A DNA stretch of 64,000 nucleotides from assembly GCA_041661865.1 (NCBI GenBank), contig JBAZTO010000004.1, positions 614-64,613 of the forward strand, given 5' to 3'. Both the position numbers and the translations under genes were made by a program. Shown here piece after piece: positions 9,791 through 63,256 of the stretch; position 1 is the stretch's first letter; each line of letters opens with the position of its first letter. Below the pieces are notes generated by a model, which was given only the letters and a program-made list of their open reading frames with translations, was not told where the DNA came from and did not search any database. The stretch comes from Phycisphaerae bacterium. Lineage in GTDB: Bacteria; Planctomycetota; Phycisphaerae; SM23-33.

Positions 9791-9977
9791 TGCCACATCC
9801 AAGCGAGGCAACGCGCAAGTTGGGGGTGTTCATCTTCGCCCCAAGCACACAACGCTTCTTGGGACGCCCAATCGAACATTTGCCCAGGCCACCTGCCGCC
9901 GTGCTGGCCGTGCATAACGACGGACCGGTTCTGGGCATGGAACTGCCATAGATACTGAACAAGAGGGGTGCAAAATC

Positions 9978-11168
9978 GTGAGATCAGAGAATGTAACGAT
10001 ATGGAAGAGAATACAGATCACCCTTCCTCACGCTTTTTGCATCGTGGTTCTGACGGCTACTGTCTTGCCCGCGCTTCATACTGTCGCCGGTTGGCTGCCC
10101 CAAGGTGTAGATGAAGACGGCGATAGAATTGATCCTTCCGTTGCCGTGGCCTTCTTTTCGCTGATTTTTTCGGTTTTGGTCTATTGGTGGCTGATTAGTC
10201 GGCTGCGAAAAGACGCAAAGCAAATTCGCGACCTGCGAACAGCCATTCAAATTGTGGCGTGCGACCAGCATGTCGATTGGCAGTCAGTGCCAGACCTCGA
10301 CACTTACCGCGAATCCCGAAATTTGCCGTTGGCAATGGCACTCGAAACGGCTGGAATCATACGGCCCAAACTCGAACTCGACGAACGCGAACGAGTGATC
10401 GCGTCTTGGCGTGCTCAACTCGATGAACCAGATCACGTGCGGGCTGTCAAAGAGGCACTCGAACACGGTCCATACAGCGGCATGTACTGGTCCTTCCAGA
10501 TTGTCAGCAGCGAATTCCGTAAGCTCATTCATCGTGAAACGCGGGAGCGATTTCCAAGAGAGTGCTACTTTGCAGAGCTTCACATTCTAATAGCGTACCG
10601 CGCAAGCGTGTTCCGGAAAGTGGCGTTTGCTGAAATGGCCAAAGATGTCGGGAATCCTTGTCTTGCGACCTTGATACATGCCATTGCCGAAATGGTGGAC
10701 AAGCCAGGCAATCCAAAGGAGATTGAAGAATCGACGCGTCGCGAACTCAATGAAGCCTTTGCCAGAGAAATAGAGCTTGAGTTACTCGAAGACGAAATCA
10801 AGAACTACGTGAAACTCCACCTAGAAGAAGCTGTGGTTCGCTGGCTAGCGAGATACAAGGATGATGCGGGTACGGTGGCCATATTCGACCGTTGGAAGCG
10901 ACTTCGCGACGGAGTTTCCAAGATGGCCGAATACCTTGGGCAAGCTAGGGGTTTCGCCACCGAAAGGCACGACATGGAGATGAACCTAAAGATTGACCGA
11001 TACGAATGGCTCAAGAATATGCAGGTTGGCAATGGAGCCAGACCTCGGAGTATCACCTGGGAGATGTACGAGGCGGCTAATAGGGGACTTGCCGCCTTCG
11101 CCAAGAGCGAGGCTGCTTTACCGGTCGACGAACCGAACAAGCCGACGTTGCCGCAAGAGCAGGATTAG
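9978..11168 (+). CDS. hypothetical membrane-anchored protein (low-GC cargo gene downstream of lexA)
   Basis: GTG start with AAGAGGGG SD; two N-terminal TM helices then about 300-aa soluble acidic/helical domain; GC clearly lower than neighbours; no recognisable family. Confidence 0.6.
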   Translation: MRSENVTIWKRIQITLPHAFCIVVLTATVLPALHTVAGWLPQGVDEDGDRIDPSVAVAFFSLIFSVLVYWWLISRLRKDAKQIRDLRTAIQIVACDQHVDWQSVPDLDTYRESRNLPLAMALETAGIIRPKLELDERERVIASWRAQLDEPDHVRAVKEALEHGPYSGMYWSFQIVSSEFRKLIHRETRERFPRECYFAELHILIAYRASVFRKVAFAEMAKDVGNPCLATLIHAIAEMVDKPGNPKEIEESTRRELNEAFAREIELELLEDEIKNYVKLHLEEAVVRWLARYKDDAGTVAIFDRWKRLRDGVSKMAEYLGQARGFATERHDMEMNLKIDRYEWLKNMQVGNGARPRSITWEMYEAANRGLAAFAKSEAALPVDEPNKPTLPQEQD

Positions 11169-11169
11169 T

Positions 11170-11420
11170 CCGTTTGCGGAAGGGCATGTTGATCGTGATG
11201 CCGTGGGCGGGTGCCGTGGTCGCGGCGTTTGCGACCACGAGCAGAAACGACGATACCCGCTCGCTTCGCGCTCGCGGCTAGTGCGCCAAGGCGCGGGCCT
11301 TGGTGCCTGCCTGCCGGTAGGCAGGTTGCGCGCCCTACATTCCGCTTAGTTCGTCCCCGCTGTCTTGGTCATTTGTGCTTCGTCATTGATTTGTCATTCG
11401 AGTTTCGTCATTCGTCATTC
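11170..11420. repeat. mosaic cluster of REP-like modules (BIME-like)
   Basis: Contains GGGTGCCGTGGTCGCGGCGTTTGCGACCACG (11210-11240, identical 31-mer at 56963), right half of CTAGCCGCGAGCGC element (11265-11295), CTGCCKGTAGGCAGGTTGCRCGCCCT module (11315-11345, also at 36519-36547) and inverted GAATGACGAA arm (11368-11420). Confidence 0.7.
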
Positions 11421-12277
11421 AAGACGGCGAGTCTTTCCGCCGTACGTTCGATCATCGTCACGCTGACGCGGGGGTGGCCCAGTTGGACGGCGGGCTTGCC
11501 CAGGCCGTGGAAGTCCGAGCCGCCGCTGGGCAGCAGGTTCAGCTTTGTCGCCAGCTCCAGGCACAGCCGCGTCTGCTGCGGCGAGTGATCGGGATGGTAC
11601 ACCTCGATGCCGTCCAGGCCCGCATGGGCCAGATCCCGCAGGACTCGCTCCAGTTGGAGGCGGTTGGCGCAGCGCAGTTGCGAGGGGTGGGCCAGCATCG
11701 CGATCCCGCCGCCGCCGTGAATGGCGTCGATCACCTGTCTCGGCCGCCAGCGATCCTTGGGCACAGCCGCCGGCCCGCCGTCGCCGAGGTAACGGTCGAA
11801 GGCCTCGGCAGGGCAGCGGACATGCCCCTTGGCCGCCAGGGTCTGGGCGATGTGCAGGCGTCCCAGGATTCGTTGGTCGCCGCCGCCGGCCTGGGCCAGC
11901 ACGTCGGCCAGGTCGATCGCCAGTCCCAGCGCCTGGAGCTTGGCGATGATCCTGGGGTTTCGCCCAGCCCGCGCCGCCTGCATCTCCCGCGTCAAGGCCT
12001 GCAGGCTCGGGGCATTCTCATCGATGCCCAAGCCAAGGATGTGCATGGTCCCGCCGGCAAAGGCGGCTGAGACCTCGATGCCGCTGACCAGGCGAAGCTG
12101 GGGAAACTCCGCCGCCGCCTGGCGCGCGGGGGCCAGTCCCTCGGTGGTGTCGTGGTCGGTCAGCGCGATAACGGCCAGCCCCGCGGCGTCGGCCTCGGCC
12201 AGCAGACGCTGGGGGCTGACCGAGCCGTCGGAGGCGGTGCTGTGGGTATGCAGATCGACCCAGCGACGGGCGCTCAT
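11408..12277 (-). CDS. PHP-domain metal-dependent phosphoesterase (TrpH/YciV-like)
   Basis: [12 protein letters not shown]-terminal PHP motif; start ATG overlaps cysK stop as ATGA (12274-12277); last codons and stop codon lie inside the GAATGACGAA repeat arm. Confidence 0.8.
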
Positions 12278-13218
12278 CGCAGGTGCTCGAACAATGGCGT
12301 GGACAGGTAGCGCTCGCCGAAACTGGGCACAATGACGACGATGCACTTGCCGGCGGACTCGGGGCGATGGGCGACCTGGTGGGCCGCGGCCAGGGCGGCG
12401 CCCGAAGAAATGCCGACGAACAGGCCCGCGTCCTTGCAGGCGCGGCGGGCCCAGTCGATGGCCTCATCCTGGTCGATCGCGACCACCTCGTCGATGGCCT
12501 GGAGGTTGAGAACCTTGGGCACGAAGCCGGCCCCGATGCCCTGGATCTTGTGGGGCCCGGGCGTGAGGGCCTGTCCCGCCAGCGTCTGGGTGAGCACGGG
12601 GCTTTGTTTGGGTTCCACGGCGACGGCCCTGAAGCCCGCCCGCCGCTGCCGGATCACCTCGCTGATGCCTGTGATGGTGCCCCCGGTCCCGACGGCGGAG
12701 ACGACGACGTCCACCTTGCCATCGGTTCCGGTCCATATTTCCTCAGCCGTGGTGCGGCGGTGAATCTCGGGGTTGGCGGGGTTCTCGAATTGCTGCGGCA
12801 CGAAGCTGTTGGGCACGACGGAGGCCAATTCCCGGGCCTTCTCGATGGCCCCGGCCATGCCGCTGGCTGCGGGGGTCAGCGAAACCTCGGCCCCCAGGGC
12901 GCGGAGCACCTTGCGCCGCTCGATGCTCATGGAGTCGGGCATGGTGACGATGCAGCGGTAGCCGCGCACGGCGCAGACGAAGGCCAGCGCGATGCCCGTG
13001 TTGCCGCTGGTGGGCTCGATAATGGTCGAGCCTTCCTTGATCGCTCCGCTCCGCTCGCCCGCATCGATCATCGCCAGGCCGATGCGGTCCTTCACCGAGG
13101 CCATGGGGTTGAGGCTTTCCATCTTGGCCAGCACGGTGGCCTTGGAGCCGATGAGCTTGTGGATGCGAACCAGCGGGGTGTTGCCGATGGTCTGCGAGAT
13201 ATCGTCGAAGATGGGCAT
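12274..13218 (-). CDS. cysK: cysteine synthase A (O-acetylserine sulfhydrylase)
   Basis: 314-aa; PLP lysine motif SVKDR, GNTG, GTGGT loops typical of CysK. Confidence 0.92.
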
Positions 13219-15085: not shown

Positions 15086-15128
15086 GGTGGCACAGGCGCC
15101 TCGGGTAGCACAGGCGTCTCGCCTGTGC
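15086..15128. repeat. CACAGGCG-nGA-CGCCTGTG palindromic REP (two adjacent copies) upstream of prfB
   Basis: ggtggcacaggcgcctcgg + gtagcacaggcgtctcgcctgtgc; same palindrome at 19131-19156, 62947-62972 and in the 63018-63158 tandem. Confidence 0.6.
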
Positions 15129-15209: not shown

Positions 15210-16335
15210 ATGCCACAAGAGCTTAATCTCAAGGATACCATCGAAGCCCTTCGCACCCGGATTCACGCCATCCGGGACTCTCTTTGACGTCCCTGCACGC
15301 CAGCAGAAAATCTCCGAACTTGAGCTGAAGATGGCCGTCCCGGGCTTCTGGAACAACAACGAAGCCGCCCAGCCGATCATCGGCGAGCTCAAGGCCCTCA
15401 AGGCCATCGTCGTTCCCATGGGCGAGCTGATCCGGCGGATCGACGACCTGGAGGCTCTCCACGGCCTGGCCGTCGAGGAAAACAGCGACGAGACGATCGC
15501 CGAGGCCGCCGCCGAGGCTGAGAGCATCCGCGCCGACGTGGAGCAACTGGAACTCCGCACGCTGCTGTCGGGGACTCACGACGCGGGCAACGCCTATTTC
15601 TCCATCCATGCCGGGGCCGGCGGCACCGAGAGCTGCGACTGGGCCCAGATGCTCCTGCGGATGTACGTGCGCTACTTTGAACGCGCCGGCTACAACGTCG
15701 AGGAAATCGACCGCCTCGACGGCGAGGAGGCCGGCATCCGCTCGGTGTCGCTGCGGGTCCGCGGGCCCTACGCCTACGGCTATCTCGCCTGCGAGCGCGG
15801 CGTGCACCGCCTGGTGCGGATCAGCCCGTATGATTCGCAAAGCCGCCGGCATACCAGCTTCGCCTCCGTCGACGTGCTGCCGGAGCTGGAGGAAGTGGAG
15901 ATCGACATCGACTTCGCCAAGGACGTTCGCGAGGATGTCTTCCGTGCCAGCGGCGCCGGCGGCCAGCACGTCAACAAGACCTCCTCCGCCGTCCGGCTGA
16001 CGCACCTTCCCACCGGCATGGTTGTCCAGTGCCAGAACGAGCGCAGCCAGCACAAGAACCGCGCCGAGTGCCACAAGCTCCTGGCGGCCAAGCTCTACCA
16101 GCTCGAACAGTCCAAGCGCGACGCCGAACTGGCCAAGATGTACGGCAACAAGGGCGAGATCGCCTTCGGCTACCAGATCCGCTCCTACGTGCTGTATCCC
16201 TACCAGTTGGTTCGCGACGAACGCACCGAACTCAAGAGTTCCCACACCGACAACGTGCTCGACGGCGAAATCCAGCCGTTCATCGATTCCTACCTGCGCT
16301 TCCGCGCAGCCCAGGAACGCGCGGCGAAGACCTAA
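15210..16335 (+). CDS. prfB: peptide chain release factor 2, translated via programmed +1 frameshift (join 15210..15284,15286..16335)
   Basis: ORF0 MPQELNLKDTIEALRTRIHAIRDSL ends at in-frame TGA within CTT TGA C; +1 frame continues DVPARQQKISELELKMAVPGFWNN...; SPF and GGQ motifs present; SD AGGAGA before ATG 15210. Confidence 0.93.
15279..15288 (+). other. prfB: prfB programmed +1 ribosomal frameshift site (CTT TGA C)
   Basis: tct CTT TGA Cgt; UGA at 15285-15287, shift onto GAC 15286-15288. Confidence 0.9.
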
Positions 16336-16351
16336 CAGGTATCTCGACGCA

Positions 16352-16429
16352 CTAGCCGCGAGCGCAAAGCGAGCGGACTATTTCCTCTTCTGAACCGACA
16401 ATCCCCGCTCGCTTTGCGCTCGCGGCTAG
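16352..16429. repeat. 78-bp inverted-repeat element CTAGCCGCGAGCGCAAAGCGAGCGG - loop - CCGCTCGCTTTGCGCTCGCGGCTAG, 17 nt after prfB stop
   Basis: perfect 25-bp arms, loop ACTATTTCCTCTTCTGAACCGACAATCC; second full copy 21712-21779 after trpB; partial copies at 11265-11295 and 62836-62862. Confidence 0.7.
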
Positions 16430-16545
16430 TGCGTCAATGGCGGGCGATGCGGTGTGCGCGATCAAGAACCAGCGAGCCGTCTGAGGGGCTTGGGATCGCA
16501 TTGATGCGTTGACCCTGTCGGAATGTGCGGTTAAGCTGGCCGGCC

Positions 16546-19085: not shown

Positions 19086-19156
19086 TAGGGCGTGCTTACC
19101 AGCACGCGGAATGCGGTTGTGCCAGGACAGCCACAGGCGGGACGCCTGTGGTACCC
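19086..19156. repeat. two REP palindromes (GCGTGC-TTACCA-GCACGC variant and CCACAGGCG-GGA-CGCCTGTGG)
   Basis: tagggcgtgcttaccagcacgcggaat ... ccacaggcgggacgcctgtggtaccc between convergent permease and NRDE genes. Confidence 0.6.
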
Positions 19157-20213: not shown

Positions 20214-21605
20214 ATGGAACAGATCAAGGTTCAGTTGGATGAGAAGGACATGCCCCATGAGTGGTACAACCTGGCCGCCGATTTGCCGACGGCCATGCTG
20301 CCGCCCCTGGGGCCCGACGGCCAGCCGGTCACGGCCGAGCAACTGGCGCCGGTCTTCCCGATGAACCTCATCGAGCAGGAAGTCTCCACCGAGCGATGGA
20401 TCAAGATTCCCGACGAGATTCAGCAGTTGCTGGCCCTGTGGCGTCCGGCGCCGCTGTACCGTGCCCGCCGGCTGGAGGCGGCCCTCAAGACCCCCGCCCG
20501 CATCTACTACAAGCACGAAGGCTTCTCGCCGGCCGGCAGTCACAAGCCCAACACGGCCATCCCGCAGGCTTGGTACAACAAGCAGTTCGGCATCAAGCGC
20601 CTGGTCACCGAGACCGGCGCGGGGCAGTGGGGCTGCGCGCTGGCCTTTGCCACCTCGCTGATCGGCCTGGAGTGCAAGGTGTACATGGTGCGGATCAGCT
20701 TCGAGCACAAGCCCTTCCGCCGCCTGATGATGGAGACCTGGGGCGCCAAGTGCGTGCCCAGCCCGTCGCCTACGACCAAGGCTGGGCGCGACGTGCTGGC
20801 CAAGTTCCCCGACACGCCCGGCTCGCTGGGCATTGCCATCAGCGAGGCCATCGAGGAGGCGGTCAGCGACCCAACCGGCCAGACGCGCTACAGCCTGGGC
20901 AGCGTGCTCAACCACGTGCTGCTGCACCAGACCGTCATCGGCCTGGAGGCCAAGAAGCAGTTGGCCAAGATCGGCGAGAACAAGGTGGACGTCGTCATCG
21001 GCTGCGCCGGCGGCGGCTCGAACTTCGCGGGCCTGGCCTTCCCGTTCGTGGCCGACAAGATCCACGGCGCCAAGATCGACATCTACCCCGTCGAGCCGAT
21101 GAGCTGCCCGAAGATGACGCGCGGGCCATTCTCCTACGACCACGGCGACGTGGCCGGCATGACCCCGCTGCTGCCGATGCACTCGCTGGGACACGCCTTC
21201 GTGCCCGCGCCCATCCACGCCGGCGGGCTGCGCTACCACGGCATGGCCCCGCTGGTCAGCCAGGCCTGCGTCGAGGGGCTGCTGACGCCCAGGGCCTACC
21301 ACCAGATCAAGTGCTACGAGTCAGCCGTCACGTGGGCGCGGACCGAAGGGTTCATCCCGGCCCCCGAGACCTCCCACGCCATCGCGTGTACCATCGACGA
21401 GGCCGTCAAGGCCCGCGAGGAAGGCAAGGAAAAGGTCATCCTGTTCAACTGGTCGGGCCACGGGCTGATGGACCTGACCGGCTACGACAACTACTTCCAA
21501 GGTAAACTGACCGACCATGCCCTGCCGGAAGAAGAACTGCAAAAGAGCCTGGCCGCCATCAAGCACCAGCCCAAGGCCCCGGTCCGCAAGAGCGGAAAGT
21601 GGTGA
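20214..21605 (+). CDS. trpB: tryptophan synthase beta chain, TrpB2 type
   Basis: 464-aa, long TrpB2-type N-terminus (WYNLAADLP), PLP lysine region [18 protein letters not shown] motif. Confidence 0.9.
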
Positions 21606-21711
21606 TTGAACAACAGTGCGAAGTGCGTGGTGCGTAGTGCGAAGAACAACAACAGTGCGAAGTGCGTGGTGCGAAGAACAGCGGCGCCGCGCCAAGACGA
21701 ACTAGCCGCGA

Positions 21712-21779
21712 GCGCAAAGCGAGCGGATTATTTCCTCTTTTGAAACGACCACACCCGCTCGCTTTGCGCTCGCGGCTAG
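21712..21779. repeat. second full copy of the CTAGCCGCGAGCGCAAAGCGAGCGG inverted-repeat element, downstream of trpB
   Basis: same 25-bp arms and similar loop (ATTATTTCCTCTTTTGAAACGACCACAC); preceded by 24-bp direct repeat caacagtgcgaagtgcgtggtgcg x2 (21611-21671). Confidence 0.7.
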
Positions 21780-21863
21780 TTTGCCTTGGCACAGATCATG
21801 GTCGCAAACGCCGCGGGCCAGGGCACTCAGCCCTCTTCCCGGCTACTGACCACAGACTACCGG

Positions 21864-30785: not shown

Positions 30786-30909
30786 ACAATGACGAATGAC
30801 GAAATGCAAATGACGAATCAATACTCGAATGCTCGAATATCCCAAACAGAATCCCGTGGACCCTGTTGGGTTATTCGTCATTGACTCGTCATTCGAGTTT
30901 CGTCATTTG
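30786..30909. repeat. complete about 125-bp inverted-repeat element of the GAATGACGAA family between gfo and mnmE
   Basis: acaatgacgaatgacgaaatgcaaatgacgaatcaatactcgaatgctcgaatat [central cccaaacagaatcccgtggaccctgttggg] ttattcgtcattgactcgtcattcgagtttcgtcatttg. Confidence 0.7.
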
Positions 30910-30926
30910 TATTGGGTGGTCTCTTC

Positions 30927-32639: not shown

Positions 32640-32712
32640 GGTGCCACCCCCAAACTCCGTTTGGGGGTGTGAAACGTTGGAACACCCCCAAGACAAACTT
32701 GGGGGTGGCACC
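32640..32712. repeat. architectural variant of the GGTGCCAC...GTGGCACC element with two different internal hairpins
   Basis: ggtgccac CCCCAAAC-tccg-GTTTGGGGG ... CACCCCCAAG-acaaa-CTTGGGGGTG gcacc; lies inside the predicted N-terminal extension of ORF 32527..33354. Confidence 0.55.
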
Positions 32713-33354: not shown

Positions 33355-34289
33355 GCGCGCCCGCGCGTAACGGCTGGCTGCCCGCCTGGCCGGGGCATCT
33401 GCGGCGGGCTGGCGTGCTGGGCATGAACGCCCGCAACACCCAACTGCTCGTGGCGCTGAACCCCAGGCGGCTCTACGACCTGGTCAACGACAAGATCCAG
33501 ACCAAGGAACTGTGCCTCCGCGAGGCGATCCCCACGCCGCGAACCTACGCGATCCTCGACCACCCCGCGCAGGTGCCCGCGGCGGCGGAGATCATGCGGC
33601 AGGCCGGCCAGTTCGTGGTCAAGCCCTCGCGCGGCAGCGGGGGCCGCGGTGTGCTGGTCATCGCCGGCAGCGAAGAGGGCGACTTCCGCACCTCCAGCGG
33701 CGTCGCGATGAGCTGGGACGAGATGCGGTACCACCTGCTGATGACGCTGGCCGGCGCGTTCTCCATCGGCGGCCGGGCCGACCGCGTGATCATCGAGCAG
33801 CGCGTCAGCCGCCACGCCGCCTTTGAAGGCCTGGCCGTCAACGGCACGCCGGATGTGCGACTGATCGTCTATCGTGGCAGCGCCATCATGGGCATGCTTC
33901 GCCTGCCGACGCTGGCCTCGGGCGGCCGGGCCAACCTCCACCAGGGCGCGCTGGGGCTGGGCCTGGACATCGCCACGGGCGTGTCCACCGGCGGCTTCTG
34001 CCGCGACCGCAGCGTGGAAGTTCATCCCGACACCGGGGCGGCCCTGACCGGCGTGGCTGTGCCGCGATGGAAGGAAATGCTGGCCGTGTCGGAGAAACTG
34101 TCAGCCGCGGTGGGCCTGGGCTACCTGGGCGTGGACATCGTGCTGGGCGAGGAGGGCCCGCTGGTCCTGGAGGCCAACGGCCGGCCGGGACTGTCCATCC
34201 AGATCGCCAACCGCTGCGGATTGATGACGCGGATCGCCGAAGCCGAGAATCGAATGACGAATGACGAAACTCGAATGATAAATCAATGA
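33351..34289 (+). CDS. ATP-grasp alpha-L-glutamate ligase-like protein (RimK-related)
   Basis: ATP-grasp motifs VVKPSRGSGGRGV, LGYLGVDIVL, LEANGRPG; GTG start overlapping upstream stop; last 13 codons ([13 protein letters not shown]) are encoded by the GAATGACGAA repeat arm. Confidence 0.8.
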   Translation: MSAPARNGWLPAWPGHLRRAGVLGMNARNTQLLVALNPRRLYDLVNDKIQTKELCLREAIPTPRTYAILDHPAQVPAAAEIMRQAGQFVVKPSRGSGGRGVLVIAGSEEGDFRTSSGVAMSWDEMRYHLLMTLAGAFSIGGRADRVIIEQRVSRHAAFEGLAVNGTPDVRLIVYRGSAIMGMLRLPTLASGGRANLHQGALGLGLDIATGVSTGGFCRDRSVEVHPDTGAALTGVAVPRWKEMLAVSEKLSAAVGLGYLGVDIVLGEEGPLVLEANGRPGLSIQIANRCGLMTRIAEAENRMTNDETRMINQ

Positions 34290-34380
34290 CGAATAACCCC
34301 ATACGTTTCGCGTGTTTCTGTTTGGGGCATTCGAGCATTCGAGTATTGATTCGTCATTCGAGTTTCGTCATTCGTCATTA
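34249..34380. repeat. complete inverted-repeat element of the GAATGACGAA family overlapping the 3' end of the ATP-grasp gene
   Basis: atcgaatgacgaatgacgaaactcgaatgataaatcaatgacgaataacc ... cattcgagcattcgagtattgattcgtcattcgagtttcgtcattcgtcatta. Confidence 0.7.
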
Positions 34381-50913: not shown

Positions 50914-51005
50914 ACGAAAGGGTAGGTAGGTGTTCGTCAACAAATAGGCCGGTTTTCCCTCGGTGTTCGGCCCGAGTTTGCCGATGACAAAAAGGGAAAA
51001 GAGCG

Positions 51006-51479
51006 ATGATGGACCCGATCAAGGACAAGCCGAGAACAATCCAACTCGACTATTATAGCGAGCATGAGTGTAAGGTTGTGGTCAAGCCGAAGGACCATGA
51101 CGTATTCATGGACAGTCTCCAGAATGTGACTACCGCTTGTCAACTTGGGAACAAGAGCATAAAGTTTTTTGAGCAATTTCGTCTGCTCCTGCAGAAGTTA
51201 GCACAGTGGTTGAGTCAGCGGCGCGGCCTTGCGCGGCACGCCTATATCACACTCAAAGAAGGTGGGTTTCTATTCATCGTGGTCAGATTGACTGCTGAGT
51301 ACAACCGTCAGTTTGAAGACGATTTGACGAAGCTGGACATCGAAGTGGCAACTGATCCCGAACTGGATTTGGTGAACTTGGAGGTTCTGGCGCTCCCCAA
51401 CGGTTCCACGGACTCACTAAGATCGTTTCTTGATCCTGATACCACTATGGAGTTTTCTCCGCGTGCCGAGCAAGACTGA
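51006..51479 (+). CDS. hypothetical protein (gene 1 of low-GC two-gene module)
   Basis: 157-aa, GC about 47% versus about 65% in flanks; no family recognised. Confidence 0.5.
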   Translation: MMDPIKDKPRTIQLDYYSEHECKVVVKPKDHDVFMDSLQNVTTACQLGNKSIKFFEQFRLLLQKLAQWLSQRRGLARHAYITLKEGGFLFIVVRLTAEYNRQFEDDLTKLDIEVATDPELDLVNLEVLALPNGSTDSLRSFLDPDTTMEFSPRAEQD

Positions 51480-51888
51480 CCACCTTACGCTGGCTCAGCA
51501 CAATCAGGACACCATCGAGTTTCTCGGGGCATCGCACTCTGACTTTTCAGACTGGGTGGCAACCATTGCCTTTTACCGGGCGCTGCACCTAGTAGAATCG
51601 CTCTTCTATCAAGATCCGTCGATCGTGCATGGGTGTGACCATAAGACAAGAGAAGCAATTCTGAAAAGACGTTACAGTATGATTTATGTGCATTACAGGC
51701 CGTTGAAGTCAGCATCGATGATTGCGAGATACCTGATGGATAGTGGTGGCACCGCATACAGGAGATTCAGTGACTACCTCAAGCCGACGGAGGTAAAGAG
51801 CGAACTCTTGGAGTTTCGGCTGAAGGAACTCGAAAAACTCGTGCAAATGCTCCTAGTTGTTAAGCCATCTGGTAGCACCGGTGTCTAA
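51463..51888 (+). CDS. hypothetical protein, possible HEPN-like (gene 2 of low-GC module)
   Basis: overlaps gene 1 by 17 nt in another frame (GTG 51463; ORF track starts TTG 51430); contains R-x6-H-Y stretch (RYSMIYVHY) loosely resembling HEPN Rx4-6H motif. Confidence 0.45.
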   Translation: MPSKTDHLTLAQHNQDTIEFLGASHSDFSDWVATIAFYRALHLVESLFYQDPSIVHGCDHKTREAILKRRYSMIYVHYRPLKSASMIARYLMDSGGTAYRRFSDYLKPTEVKSELLEFRLKELEKLVQMLLVVKPSGSTGV

Positions 51889-53322: not shown

Positions 53323-53973
53323 ACCATACAAAGAGTTATCGCGTACATTGACGGGTTTAACTTGTACTTCGGCCTACGCGAAAACAAGTGGCGAAGGTAT
53401 TACTGGCTCAACTTATGGGCCTTGGTACTCAGTCTACTGAAGCCTGACCAGAAGCTCGTCCTCACGAAGTATTTTACTGCCCGAATCGCTGGTGCTCGGC
53501 AAGGGGATCCTCCGATGCTAGCGCGTGAACTCGATGCCAAAGTCAAGCGGCAAGGCCTGTTTCTGGATGCCCTGAGTACTCTGCGAAACTTACAAGTCTT
53601 TGAAGGACACTATCTTGGGAAAACCGTGGAATGCTTCCGCTGTGGGGGGACGTGGCGAACCCACGAAGAAAAGATGACAGATGTGAACATCGCCACCGAG
53701 ATCTTGACGGATGCATTCAATGATCACTTTGACACGGCGATTCTGATCTCCGGGGATAGCGATCTTGTTCCTCCAGTACTGGCCGTAAGGCAGTATTTTC
53801 CCGGGAAGAAGATTGTTGCGGCCTTCCCACCGTCACGGACCTCCGAACAATTGAAGCGAGCGGTCAATGCCTATTTCGTCATCGGTGAAGCGAAGCTTCG
53901 GCAAAGTCAGTTCCCGGATTACGTCAAGAAATCAGATGGTTTCACTCTTGTTAGGCCACAGGAATGGCGATAG
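53323..53973 (+). CDS. NYN-domain (PIN-like nuclease fold) protein
   Basis: Frame opens at 53323 (stop at 53320); translation ..RVIAYIDGFNLYFGLR matches NYN N-terminal motif; no ATG/GTG before TTG 53362, so start codon is non-canonical or unresolved; low GC. Confidence 0.65.
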   Translation, partial: TIQRVIAYIDGFNLYFGLRENKWRRYYWLNLWALVLSLLKPDQKLVLTKYFTARIAGARQGDPPMLARELDAKVKRQGLFLDALSTLRNLQVFEGHYLGKTVECFRCGGTWRTHEEKMTDVNIATEILTDAFNDHFDTAILISGDSDLVPPVLAVRQYFPGKKIVAAFPPSRTSEQLKRAVNAYFVIGEAKLRQSQFPDYVKKSDGFTLVRPQEWR

Positions 53974-56962: not shown

Positions 56963-56993
56963 GGGTGCCGTGGTCGCGGCGTTTGCGACCACG
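56963..56993. repeat. GGGTGCC-GTGGTCGC-ggcgttt-GCGACCAC palindromic REP (identical 31-mer to 11210-11240)
   Basis: followed by GGCCCTGTTT...AAACAGGGCC hairpin (57000-57045). Confidence 0.55.
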
Positions 56994-58482: not shown

Positions 58483-58567
58483 TGCCCGGGACAGGAGTTG
58501 AACCTGCATGGGACAAAGTCCCACCAGCCCCTCAAGCTGGCGCGTCTGCCAATTCCGCCACCCGGGC
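58483..58567 (-). tRNA. tRNA-Leu (anticodon GAG)
   Basis: 85-nt cloverleaf: acceptor GCCCGGG/CCCGGGC, D-arm GCGGAATTGGCAGACGC, anticodon stem CCAGC/GCTGG with loop TTGAGGG, long variable arm GGGAC-TTT-GTCCC, T-loop TTCAACT, discriminator A; close to E. coli tRNA-Leu D-arm. Confidence 0.85.
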
Positions 58568-62775: not shown

Positions 62776-62946
62776 TACCTGGTTATCGACTTCCGGTTTC
62801 TTGATTTTTCGATTTCAGCCGCCGCGGGTGCCCAGATCAAACCAGCCGTGAGCGCAAAGCGAGCGGAAATCCTGGCGACACTTTCCGGCCTCGCGAGCAA
62901 AACAGTCTACAACGTCGCCCGGCGGTTTGCACTCTCATTGCGTTCT

Positions 62947-62972
62947 GGTAGCACAGGCGTCCCGCCTGTGCT
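62947..62972. repeat. inverted single copy of the CACAGGCG palindromic unit
   Basis: ggtagcacaggcgtcccgcctgtgct. Confidence 0.6.
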
Positions 62973-63017: not shown

Positions 63018-63158
63018 CACAGGCGAGACGCCTGTGCTACCACACTCACAGGCGAGACGCCTGTGCTACCACACTCACAGGCGAGACGCCTGTGCTACCA
63101 CACTCACAGGCGAGACGCCTGTGCTACCACACTCACAGGCGAGACGCCTGTGCTACCC
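63018..63158. repeat. tandem array of five 29-bp units CACAGGCGAGACGCCTGTGCTACCACACT (no spacers)
   Basis: exact 29-nt period at 63018, 63047, 63076, 63105, 63134 (last unit truncated); each unit contains the CACAGGCG-AGA-CGCCTGTG palindrome. Confidence 0.8.
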
Positions 63159-63224: not shown

Positions 63225-63256
63225 ACGTGGTCGCAAACGCCGCGACCACGGCACCT
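63225..63256. repeat. CGTGGTCGC-aaacgcc-GCGACCACG palindromic REP
   Basis: cacgtggtcgcaaacgccgcgaccacggcacc; preceded by CAGGGGCGC...GCGCCCCTG hairpin (63169-63202). Confidence 0.5.

Follow-up and report, generated by a model that had tools for sequence, protein, structure and literature searches.

The window analyzed here, a 64,000-nt stretch of a Phycisphaerae genome, contains two copies of a 78-bp inverted-repeat element, both located downstream of genes on the + strand (Table 1). Copy 1 lies between prfB, which encodes release factor 2, and a prephenate dehydrogenase gene that starts at ~16525, while copy 2 follows a gene for a TrpB-like, pyridoxal phosphate (PLP)-dependent enzyme. The original prediction had named the upstream genes prfB and trpB; the former name was upheld by the protein family matches, and the latter gene encodes TrpB2, which is non-canonical. 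The predicted placement behind stop codons also stands, with the distances corrected from 17 nt to 16 nt for the prfB TAA stop (16335) and from ~105 nt to 96 nt for the trpB2 stop (21605). The base of the extended stem of copy 1 is 10 nt from the prfB stop. The prfB gene itself contains a +1 programmed frameshift site, CTT TGA C, at 15283-15289, and its true start is the ATG at 15211. Short tandem and interspersed repeats of cagtgcgaagtgcgtggtgcg occupy 21600-21680, between the trpB2 stop and copy 2, and a related inverted pair is present at 347-419.

Table 1. Positions of the repeat elements and of the genes upstream of the two doublets in the window
Feature	Coordinates	Strand	Details
prfB (release factor 2)	15211..16335	+	TIGR00020, E 2e-137; upstream neighbor of copy 1, outside the element
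REPIN copy 1, with extended stem	16346..16435	no strand	
Copy 1, left REP arm	16352-16376	+	exact 25-mer
Copy 1, spacer	16377-16404		28 nt
Copy 1, right REP arm	16405-16429	-	exact 25-mer
TrpB-like (TrpB2) PLP-dependent enzyme	20214..21605	+	463 aa; NF009057; upstream neighbor of copy 2, outside the element
REPIN copy 2, with extended stem	21691..21790	no strand	
Copy 2, left REP arm	21702-21726	+	exact 25-mer
Copy 2, spacer	21727-21754		28 nt
Copy 2, right REP arm	21755-21779	-	exact 25-mer
REP singlet with spacer remnant	11242..11281	-	arm 11257-11281, 1 mismatch
Degenerate REP singlet CCAGCCGTGAGCGCAAAGCGAGCGG	62842..62866	+	2 mismatches; groEL-dnaJ intergenic region

Searching the window with the 25-nt arm sequence CTAGCCGCGAGCGCAAAGCGAGCGG returned six matches (four exact, one with one mismatch and one with two), compared to 0.00 expected from 100 shuffles. 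The four exact matches are the arms of the two elements; the claim of two full copies with identical 25-bp arms and similar loops was thus confirmed. Copy 1 has the predicted ends, 16352-16429, whereas copy 2 begins at 21702 and not at 21712. The two remaining matches correspond to half-copies that had been placed a few bases away, at 11265-11295 and 62836-62862. All four sites in the window, two doublets and two singlets, are intergenic. Copies 1 and 2 are identical at 72 of 78 positions. Their arms are the same and all six differences fall within the spacer (22 of 28 positions identical), for which our own arithmetic gives a chance probability of (28/78)^6, or ~0.002. Complementarity extends beyond the arms, to 31 nt at 100% in copy 1 (16346-16376 with 16405-16435) and 36 nt at 94% in copy 2 (21691-21726 with 21755-21790), in each case around the 28-nt spacer. 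RNA folding of 110-nt regions gave energies of -71 to -86 kcal/mol with z-scores of -8.9 to -15, and the two doublets had values of -71 and -73 kcal/mol.

Each arm consists of a 5' foot, (A)CTAG, followed by a 21-nt mini-hairpin, CCGC-GA-GC-GCAAA-GC-GA-GCGG, in which a 4-bp stem, a tandem G.A/A.G mismatch and a 2-bp stem are capped by a G-N-N(-N)-A loop. The 78-bp element thus contains two such units in inverted orientation, with their feet outward and 28 nt apart. The lowest-energy DNA fold prediction consists of the same foot, 4 bp, GA/GA, 2 bp and loop. Because the predicted stability of the mini-hairpin does not exceed that of shuffled sequences (DNA fold, z -0.6 to -1.7), its support comes from covariation and not from energy. 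Among 12 hand-picked variants from different genomes, pairing was retained in 72 of 72 cells, with compensatory changes at two of the six pairs, 8-24 (GC/CG) and 12-20 (GC/CG/AT); the observed covariation score was reached in 0 of 500 shuffles and the signal was abolished when the partners were slid. Variants elsewhere also change paired positions jointly (CCCC...GGGG; CC-GTGA-GG; AC-GGAA-GT; loops GTAA, GCAA and GCGA), and when sites were anchored solely on the 5' half, most multi-copy variants closed the hairpin. An alternative description of the arm as a direct repeat, GCGAGCG...GCGAGCG, was ruled out by variants such as CCGCGACCGTGAGGGAGCGG, which drop the direct repeat and retain pairing.

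Upstream of the hairpin, a degenerate 5' extension, CCwwGrCrmACTAG, is common to all window and metagenome copies, singlets included. This shared extension is part of the unit and explains the extra pairing beyond 25 nt. Insertion into a pre-existing palindromic target, which could also have produced the longer stems, was ruled out because the extension is common to every arm. Taken together, the comparisons indicate that what is conserved is the individual arm, complete with foot and mini-hairpin, rather than the 78-bp palindrome, and this points to recognition as DNA rather than to an RNA role. Judged by their sequence, the arms are REPs, as they are short foldable units with a 5' foot in intergenic positions, although their foot departs from the canonical GT[AG]G. 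By the same standard the 78-bp elements are REPIN doublets, with two inverted REPs and a short spacer predicted to form one long hairpin.

Two convergent genes, 9978-11168 (+) and a PHP-family gene at 11408-12346 (-), enclose the singlet at 11257. Next to its arm it retains ~15 nt of REPIN spacer (CAGAAACGACGATAC compared to TTGAAACGACCACAC) and it is therefore half a REPIN, with the place of the missing left half taken by a GTGG-footed palindrome of another family (11216-11238). The singlet at 62842 adjoins an array of GTAG-type REPs. Several other repeats were evident in the window. A canonical GTAG-foot REP family, GTAGCACAGGCGTCTCGCCTGTG, is found at 15105-15127(+), 19132-19154(-), 62948-62970(+) and 63018-63156(-), where none is expected by chance; between groEL and dnaJ, five of its units form a head-to-tail array that repeats every 29 nt. 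The genome probably also encodes a class 2 RAYT. The GTGG-foot palindromic repeat, GTGGTCGCAAACGCCGCGACCAC, occurs at 11216-11238(-), 56970-56992(-) and 63227-63249(+), with a degenerate copy at ~21797-21822, and directly adjoins copies of the 25-nt REP at 11257 and 21779 to form BIME-like mosaics. A further inverted-repeat family (AATGACGAATGACGAAACTCGAATGA...) is represented by two copies, at 34253-34379 and 30792-30910, with arms of 31-35 nt and a 57-nt spacer, and an imperfect palindrome, GGTGCCACCCCCAAAC...GTTTGGGGGTGGCACC-like, at 32640-32712 has 31-nt arms that are 81% complementary across an 11-nt gap. Three ORFs on the + strand (9918-11168, 50988-51888 and 53323-53973) have a third-position GC of 0.56-0.60, compared to 0.8-0.9 in their neighbors, and may be foreign or not real genes; ORF 9918-11168 had no match in Pfam or NCBIfam.

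Representative genomes were scanned with a 19-mer core, which matched at least 100 stretches. About four-fifths of the 80 stretches listed derive from one Phycisphaeraceae MAG, CAYRHJ01, and the others from Phycisphaerae MAGs and a Krumholzibacteriia contig. Matches in a Myxococcales contig (L078) and single matches in other phyla (L006, L012, L023, L037, L041 and others) comprised the 19-mer without foot or stem and were set aside as chance; a scan of viral contigs gave 0 matches. In the sampled part of CAYRHJ01 we counted at least 169 copies with up to two mismatches, 145 of which lie outside long ORFs according to crude gene calls. The CAYRHJ01 motif, aCGAGCCGCGAGCGCAAAGCGAGCGGtc, stands singly or is tandemly repeated in direct orientation at periods of 47-66 nt. 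CRISPR arrays were ruled out, since the units come in pairs or short arrays and the spacers are repeated, with these same periods. With the same crude gene calls, 96 of 132 cases had a 3'-side gene oriented towards the motif; the units are thus situated at the 3' ends of genes, and the strand with the GA/G...A hairpin is in most cases antisense to the mRNA. Such placement fits strand-specific insertion of single-stranded DNA (ssDNA) at least as well as an RNA role. Beside its REP arrays (L002, L004, L013, L020, L045 and other loci), CAYRHJ01 has further repeat families, gtcattccggcgaacgccggaatccag, which forms a small hairpin, and gggtggcccacctcctttggaggtgggggagccgatga, and it also carries a sister REP variant, AGAGCCGCGACCGT(G/C)AGGGAGCGGTC.

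In metagenomes, the exact 25-mer was found on eight short contigs, seven of them from JGI metagenome Ga0172379. One of these, Ga0172379_10175952 (L104), is identical in sequence to copy 2, and the organism of the window is therefore present in that metagenome. Five of the Ga0172379 contigs carry singlets, while a contig from another metagenome (L105) carries a doublet with the same 28-nt spacing and an unrelated spacer sequence. Singlets and doublets thus number two and two in the window and five and one to two in the metagenome contigs. Given this frequency of singlets and the tandem arrays of CAYRHJ01, the doublet is not clearly the sole or main unit copied; the 22/28 spacer identity between copies 1 and 2 and the spacer remnant at singlet 11257 favor copying as a doublet.

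The position of the doublets raises the question of a host RNA element, in which a 3'-UTR stem-loop would end transcription, shield the mRNA from 3' exonucleases or lower prfB translation, and the repetition would be incidental. Both doublets follow + strand genes and would yield very stable transcribed hairpins, with the stem base of copy 1 only 10 nt behind the prfB stop, and the CAYRHJ01 units prefer gene 3' ends. Moreover, ribosomes are stalled by Escherichia coli REPs that lie no more than 15 nt from a stop codon, and REPs have been reported to stabilize mRNA and to cause termination, as summarized in PMC6006769 and PMC12306157; similar effects may be supposed here by analogy. GC-rich hairpins just after gene ends are likewise typical of Rho-independent terminators. 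However, the stems here are far longer than those of such terminators, the same sequence recurs at unrelated loci and around transposase genes (see below), and neither stem is followed by a T-run on either strand, the sequence after the stems being AATGGCGG or ACAGATCA. A search of both strands for terminator-like sites found none overlapping either element. In two relatives with 81-82% identical TrpB2, by contrast, ordinary hairpin-plus-T-run terminators and no REP follow that gene; insertion there is therefore specific to the lineage of the window. The description of the element as terminator-like thus finds no support in the sequence. The conserved unit, furthermore, is the footed single arm, and its tandem-GA, G...A-loop strand is mostly antisense to mRNA in CAYRHJ01 (crude gene calls). 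We therefore consider a host RNA element unlikely as the explanation of these repeats. RNA effects would be compatible with the REPIN reading, as a secondary consequence, and leave the origin of the repeats unexplained; from the precedent of E. coli REPs, stabilization of RNA or processing of the stems into small RNAs may be considered plausible.

A related proposal, that the stem is an RNase III substrate which yields small RNAs or destabilizes the upstream mRNA, and so serves as a source of sRNA or antisense RNA rather than as a stabilizer, appears very unlikely. Double-strand-specific RNases such as RNase III need roughly 20 bp, and the duplexes of 31-36 bp are nearly perfect. Against this, no promoter-like site lies nearby, Rfam at the gathering threshold matched a tRNA (58483-58567) and nothing else in the whole window, including at the elements, and most members of the family are singlets, which are unable to form a long duplex.

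The REPIN reading is favored by the association of the motif with a transposase gene. A search of the window and 108 loci for the class 2 RAYT motif (H.H plus Y..NP) gave no match. A looser transposase motif search pointed to a 156-aa ORF at locus L017, which matches Pfam Y1_Tnp (E 2e-8) and is bracketed by inward-facing copies of the motif. The other candidates from the loose search (L045, L072, L073, L100 and L028) had no recognizable transposase features and no tblastn match to RAYT homologs; indeed, tblastn with 120 such homologs found none in the window or in L001-L108 except L017. The L017 protein has 671 homologs, many of which bear the JGI name "REP element-mobilizing transposase RayT". 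In all six further contexts examined (L109/110/111, L112, L113, L114, L115 and L116), the gene has the foot-plus-hairpin motif on either side, no more than ~100 nt away, as in ACTAGCCGCGAGCGTAAGCGAGCGG and ACTAGCCCCGAGCGCAAGCGAGGGG. These flanked Y1_Tnp genes encode proteins of 150-158 aa and occupy seven loci, which represent six distinct gene contexts in Planctomycetota, from Phycisphaerales, Planctomycetaceae and Gemmataceae as well as unnamed MAGs. The arrangement of the flanks varies, with an inverted pair in some contexts and a doublet on each side in others, and in some related genomes the same inverted arrangement is found with a transposase gene in place of the short spacer. In the Gemmataceae contig L116, the RAYT gene is flanked on both sides by REP doublets (~1310-1382 and 1860-1926; ACCAGCCCGAAGCGTGAGCGAGGGCCGCCCTCGCTCACGCTTCGGGCTGGT) that are almost without a spacer, and doublet geometry therefore differs between lineages. 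The foot also varies with the transposase lineage and reads CTAG, CCAG or CGAG.

These loci also bear on whether the element could be a classical MITE, namely an internally deleted insertion sequence (IS) of the DDE family, such as an IS5-like element with CTAG duplication, whose terminal inverted repeats would be the arms. The element is 78 bp long, has perfect terminal inverted repeats and carries CTAG at both ends, and CTAG is a known IS5-type target. However, the singlets have CTAG on one side only, within the longer conserved 5' extension, and there is no direct duplication outside the arms. The foot varies with the transposase, as noted above. Moreover, at the loci fetched via homologs of the L017 transposase the gene between the arms is always Y1_Tnp, and no DDE transposase was noticed between copies in 118 loci, inspected without a systematic domain scan. 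A MITE origin is thus extremely improbable.

An alignment of 14 homologs showed N90, H91, V92, H93 and Y152 to be invariant, W114 to be present in 8 of 14 and T10-G15 to be conserved. The homologs, of ~155 aa, thus share NHVH, W[A/T] and C-terminal YVxx(x)Q motifs and a conserved N-terminus, and the transposase profile gave weak matches to the IS200-family TnpA structures 2f4f, 2ec2 and 2xm3. In these motifs the transposases agree with class 3 TnpA_Y1 as described by Quentin et al. 2018 (PMC6006769), whose profile in the published motif table, the sole basis of the comparison, comprises NHVH, W[TA], Y....Q, ~155 aa and a conserved N-terminus. According to that article, class 3 is found mainly in Planctomycetes, is associated with "atypical secondary structures", sometimes in hundreds of copies, and is regarded as intermediate between IS200 elements/insertion sequences and REPtrons. 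The systems described here resemble this account in their occurrence in Planctomycetes, in the presence, on the flanks of the gene, of several small, structured, 5'-footed repeats and in the high copy number that is possible. The class 3 foot is given there as CnGA, whereas the foot here is CTAG, CCAG or CGAG directly before the stem CC; the CAGA-GCC variants of CAYRHJ01 could fit CnGA. REPIN-type doublets, present here, are not described for class 3 in the portion of the article available to us.

In three lineages (L109 6874-8403, L112 8369-9904 and L114 720-2270), a comM/Mg-chelatase-like gene is the close upstream neighbor of the class 3 RAYT gene, which suggests that the comM-adjacent RAYT has been domesticated and is inherited vertically. 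About 170 nt upstream of the intact gene, at L109 9731-9838 (also in L110 and L111), is a fragment similar to the C-terminus of the RAYT (66% identity to aa 115-152), likely the remnant of a duplication. A candidate enzyme for the window's own repeats was also evident. The window TrpB2 is 100% identical to MFA6132906.1 (P0121), from a 107-kb contig labeled "MAG: Phycisphaerae bacterium", and a RAYT homolog with 59% identity to the L017 protein, MFA6132694.1 (P0002), comes from a 133-kb contig with the same label. As the two accessions are 212 apart under one label, they almost certainly belong to one genome, and the MAG of the window thus very probably encodes the Y1 transposase MFA6132694.1. 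By analogy with the loci of its relatives, this gene would be flanked in its source MAG by the same REP.

The family can be compared with the REPINs/BIMEs and RAYTs (TnpA-REP) of Pseudomonas and Enterobacteria (Bertels & Rainey 2011, PMC3116915; Nunvar et al. 2010; Ton-Hoang/Corneloup et al., PMC8266576), with which it shares a short intergenic unit with a 5' tetranucleotide foot and hairpin. In both, two inverted units around a short spacer make up a long hairpin, singlets resemble decayed doublets, units flank a Y1 HUH transposase gene and the family can be highly repeated in a genome. The differences are the foot (CTAG, CCAG or CGAG versus GT[AG]G), the unusual hairpin of 4 bp, tandem GA and 2 bp, the planctomycete host, and singlets, together with tandem arrays in one MAG, that are as common as doublets. 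The transposase, unlike class 2 RAYTs, is without a YxxxNP-type motif and ends in YVxx(x)Q like IS200 TnpA. Indeed, the IS200/IS605 elements IS608 and ISDra2 likewise combine a Y1 HUH transposase, whose C-terminal tyrosine motif ends in Q, with subterminal ssDNA hairpins and a 5' guide tetranucleotide, and comparable recognition may be proposed here by analogy. Unlike in IS200/IS605, hundreds of hairpin units are scattered without the gene, and in place of hopping, the gene keeps its position beside the comM-like gene in three lineages and looks domesticated.

Our data make it highly probable that the two 78-bp elements are REPINs, that the half-copies are REP singlets, and that the family goes with a small Y1 HUH transposase of Planctomycetota. 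The claim that the element is a mobile module gains support accordingly: its arms appear to be REP units of a family that flanks Y1 transposase genes, is highly repeated intergenically in CAYRHJ01 and is absent after trpB2 in two relatives. Most likely, the REPIN or REP was moved in trans as single-stranded DNA, for which the biochemistry of IS200/IS605 and E. coli TnpA-REP (PMC8266576, PMC6006769) provides the template. On that analogy, a single-copy transposase encoded elsewhere in the genome would bind the folded single-stranded hairpin and read the foot. It would then cut and rejoin single-stranded DNA, for example at the replication fork, such that REPs and REPINs are copied into intergenic sites. 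Only copies with intact arms would remain mobilizable, which would account for the identity of the arms alongside drift in the spacers and outer flanks. Once transcribed, the 31-36-bp stem after a gene might stop 3' exonucleases, undergo cleavage by RNase III or, at prfB, impede ribosomes during termination.

A broader possibility, which we put forward tentatively and as the less likely outcome, is that the class 3 Y1 transposases of Planctomycetota constitute a third, independently domesticated REP/REPIN-RAYT system, with a vertically inherited gene often beside comM, a tandem-G.A/G...A-loop ssDNA hairpin signal and a near-unchanged core, CCGCGAGCG-loop-GCGAGCGG. This core is almost unchanged across Phycisphaerae, Planctomycetaceae and Gemmataceae, whose transposases are ~45-55% identical. 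If true, such a system would imply unusually tight protein-DNA coevolution or a host-level function of the repeat.

The element adds a Phycisphaerae case to a class of bacterial repeat that was already known. What is new is modest: a foot other than GTAG, a mini-hairpin with tandem GA and a core that is strongly conserved across planctomycete lineages. To our knowledge, work on REPIN-RAYT systems has dealt almost exclusively with Gammaproteobacteria. Since 2018, when the class 3 Y1 transposases were singled out as possibly intermediate between insertion sequences and domesticated RAYTs, little further work on them has appeared. The window supplies a sequence definition of a class 3-associated repeat in Phycisphaerae, comprising its foot, mini-hairpin and doublet architecture, and with a candidate cognate enzyme in the same MAG this defined repeat opens the way to straightforward biochemical tests and genome-wide censuses. 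For annotation, the conspicuous hairpins after prfB and trpB2 can be explained without a new regulatory RNA.
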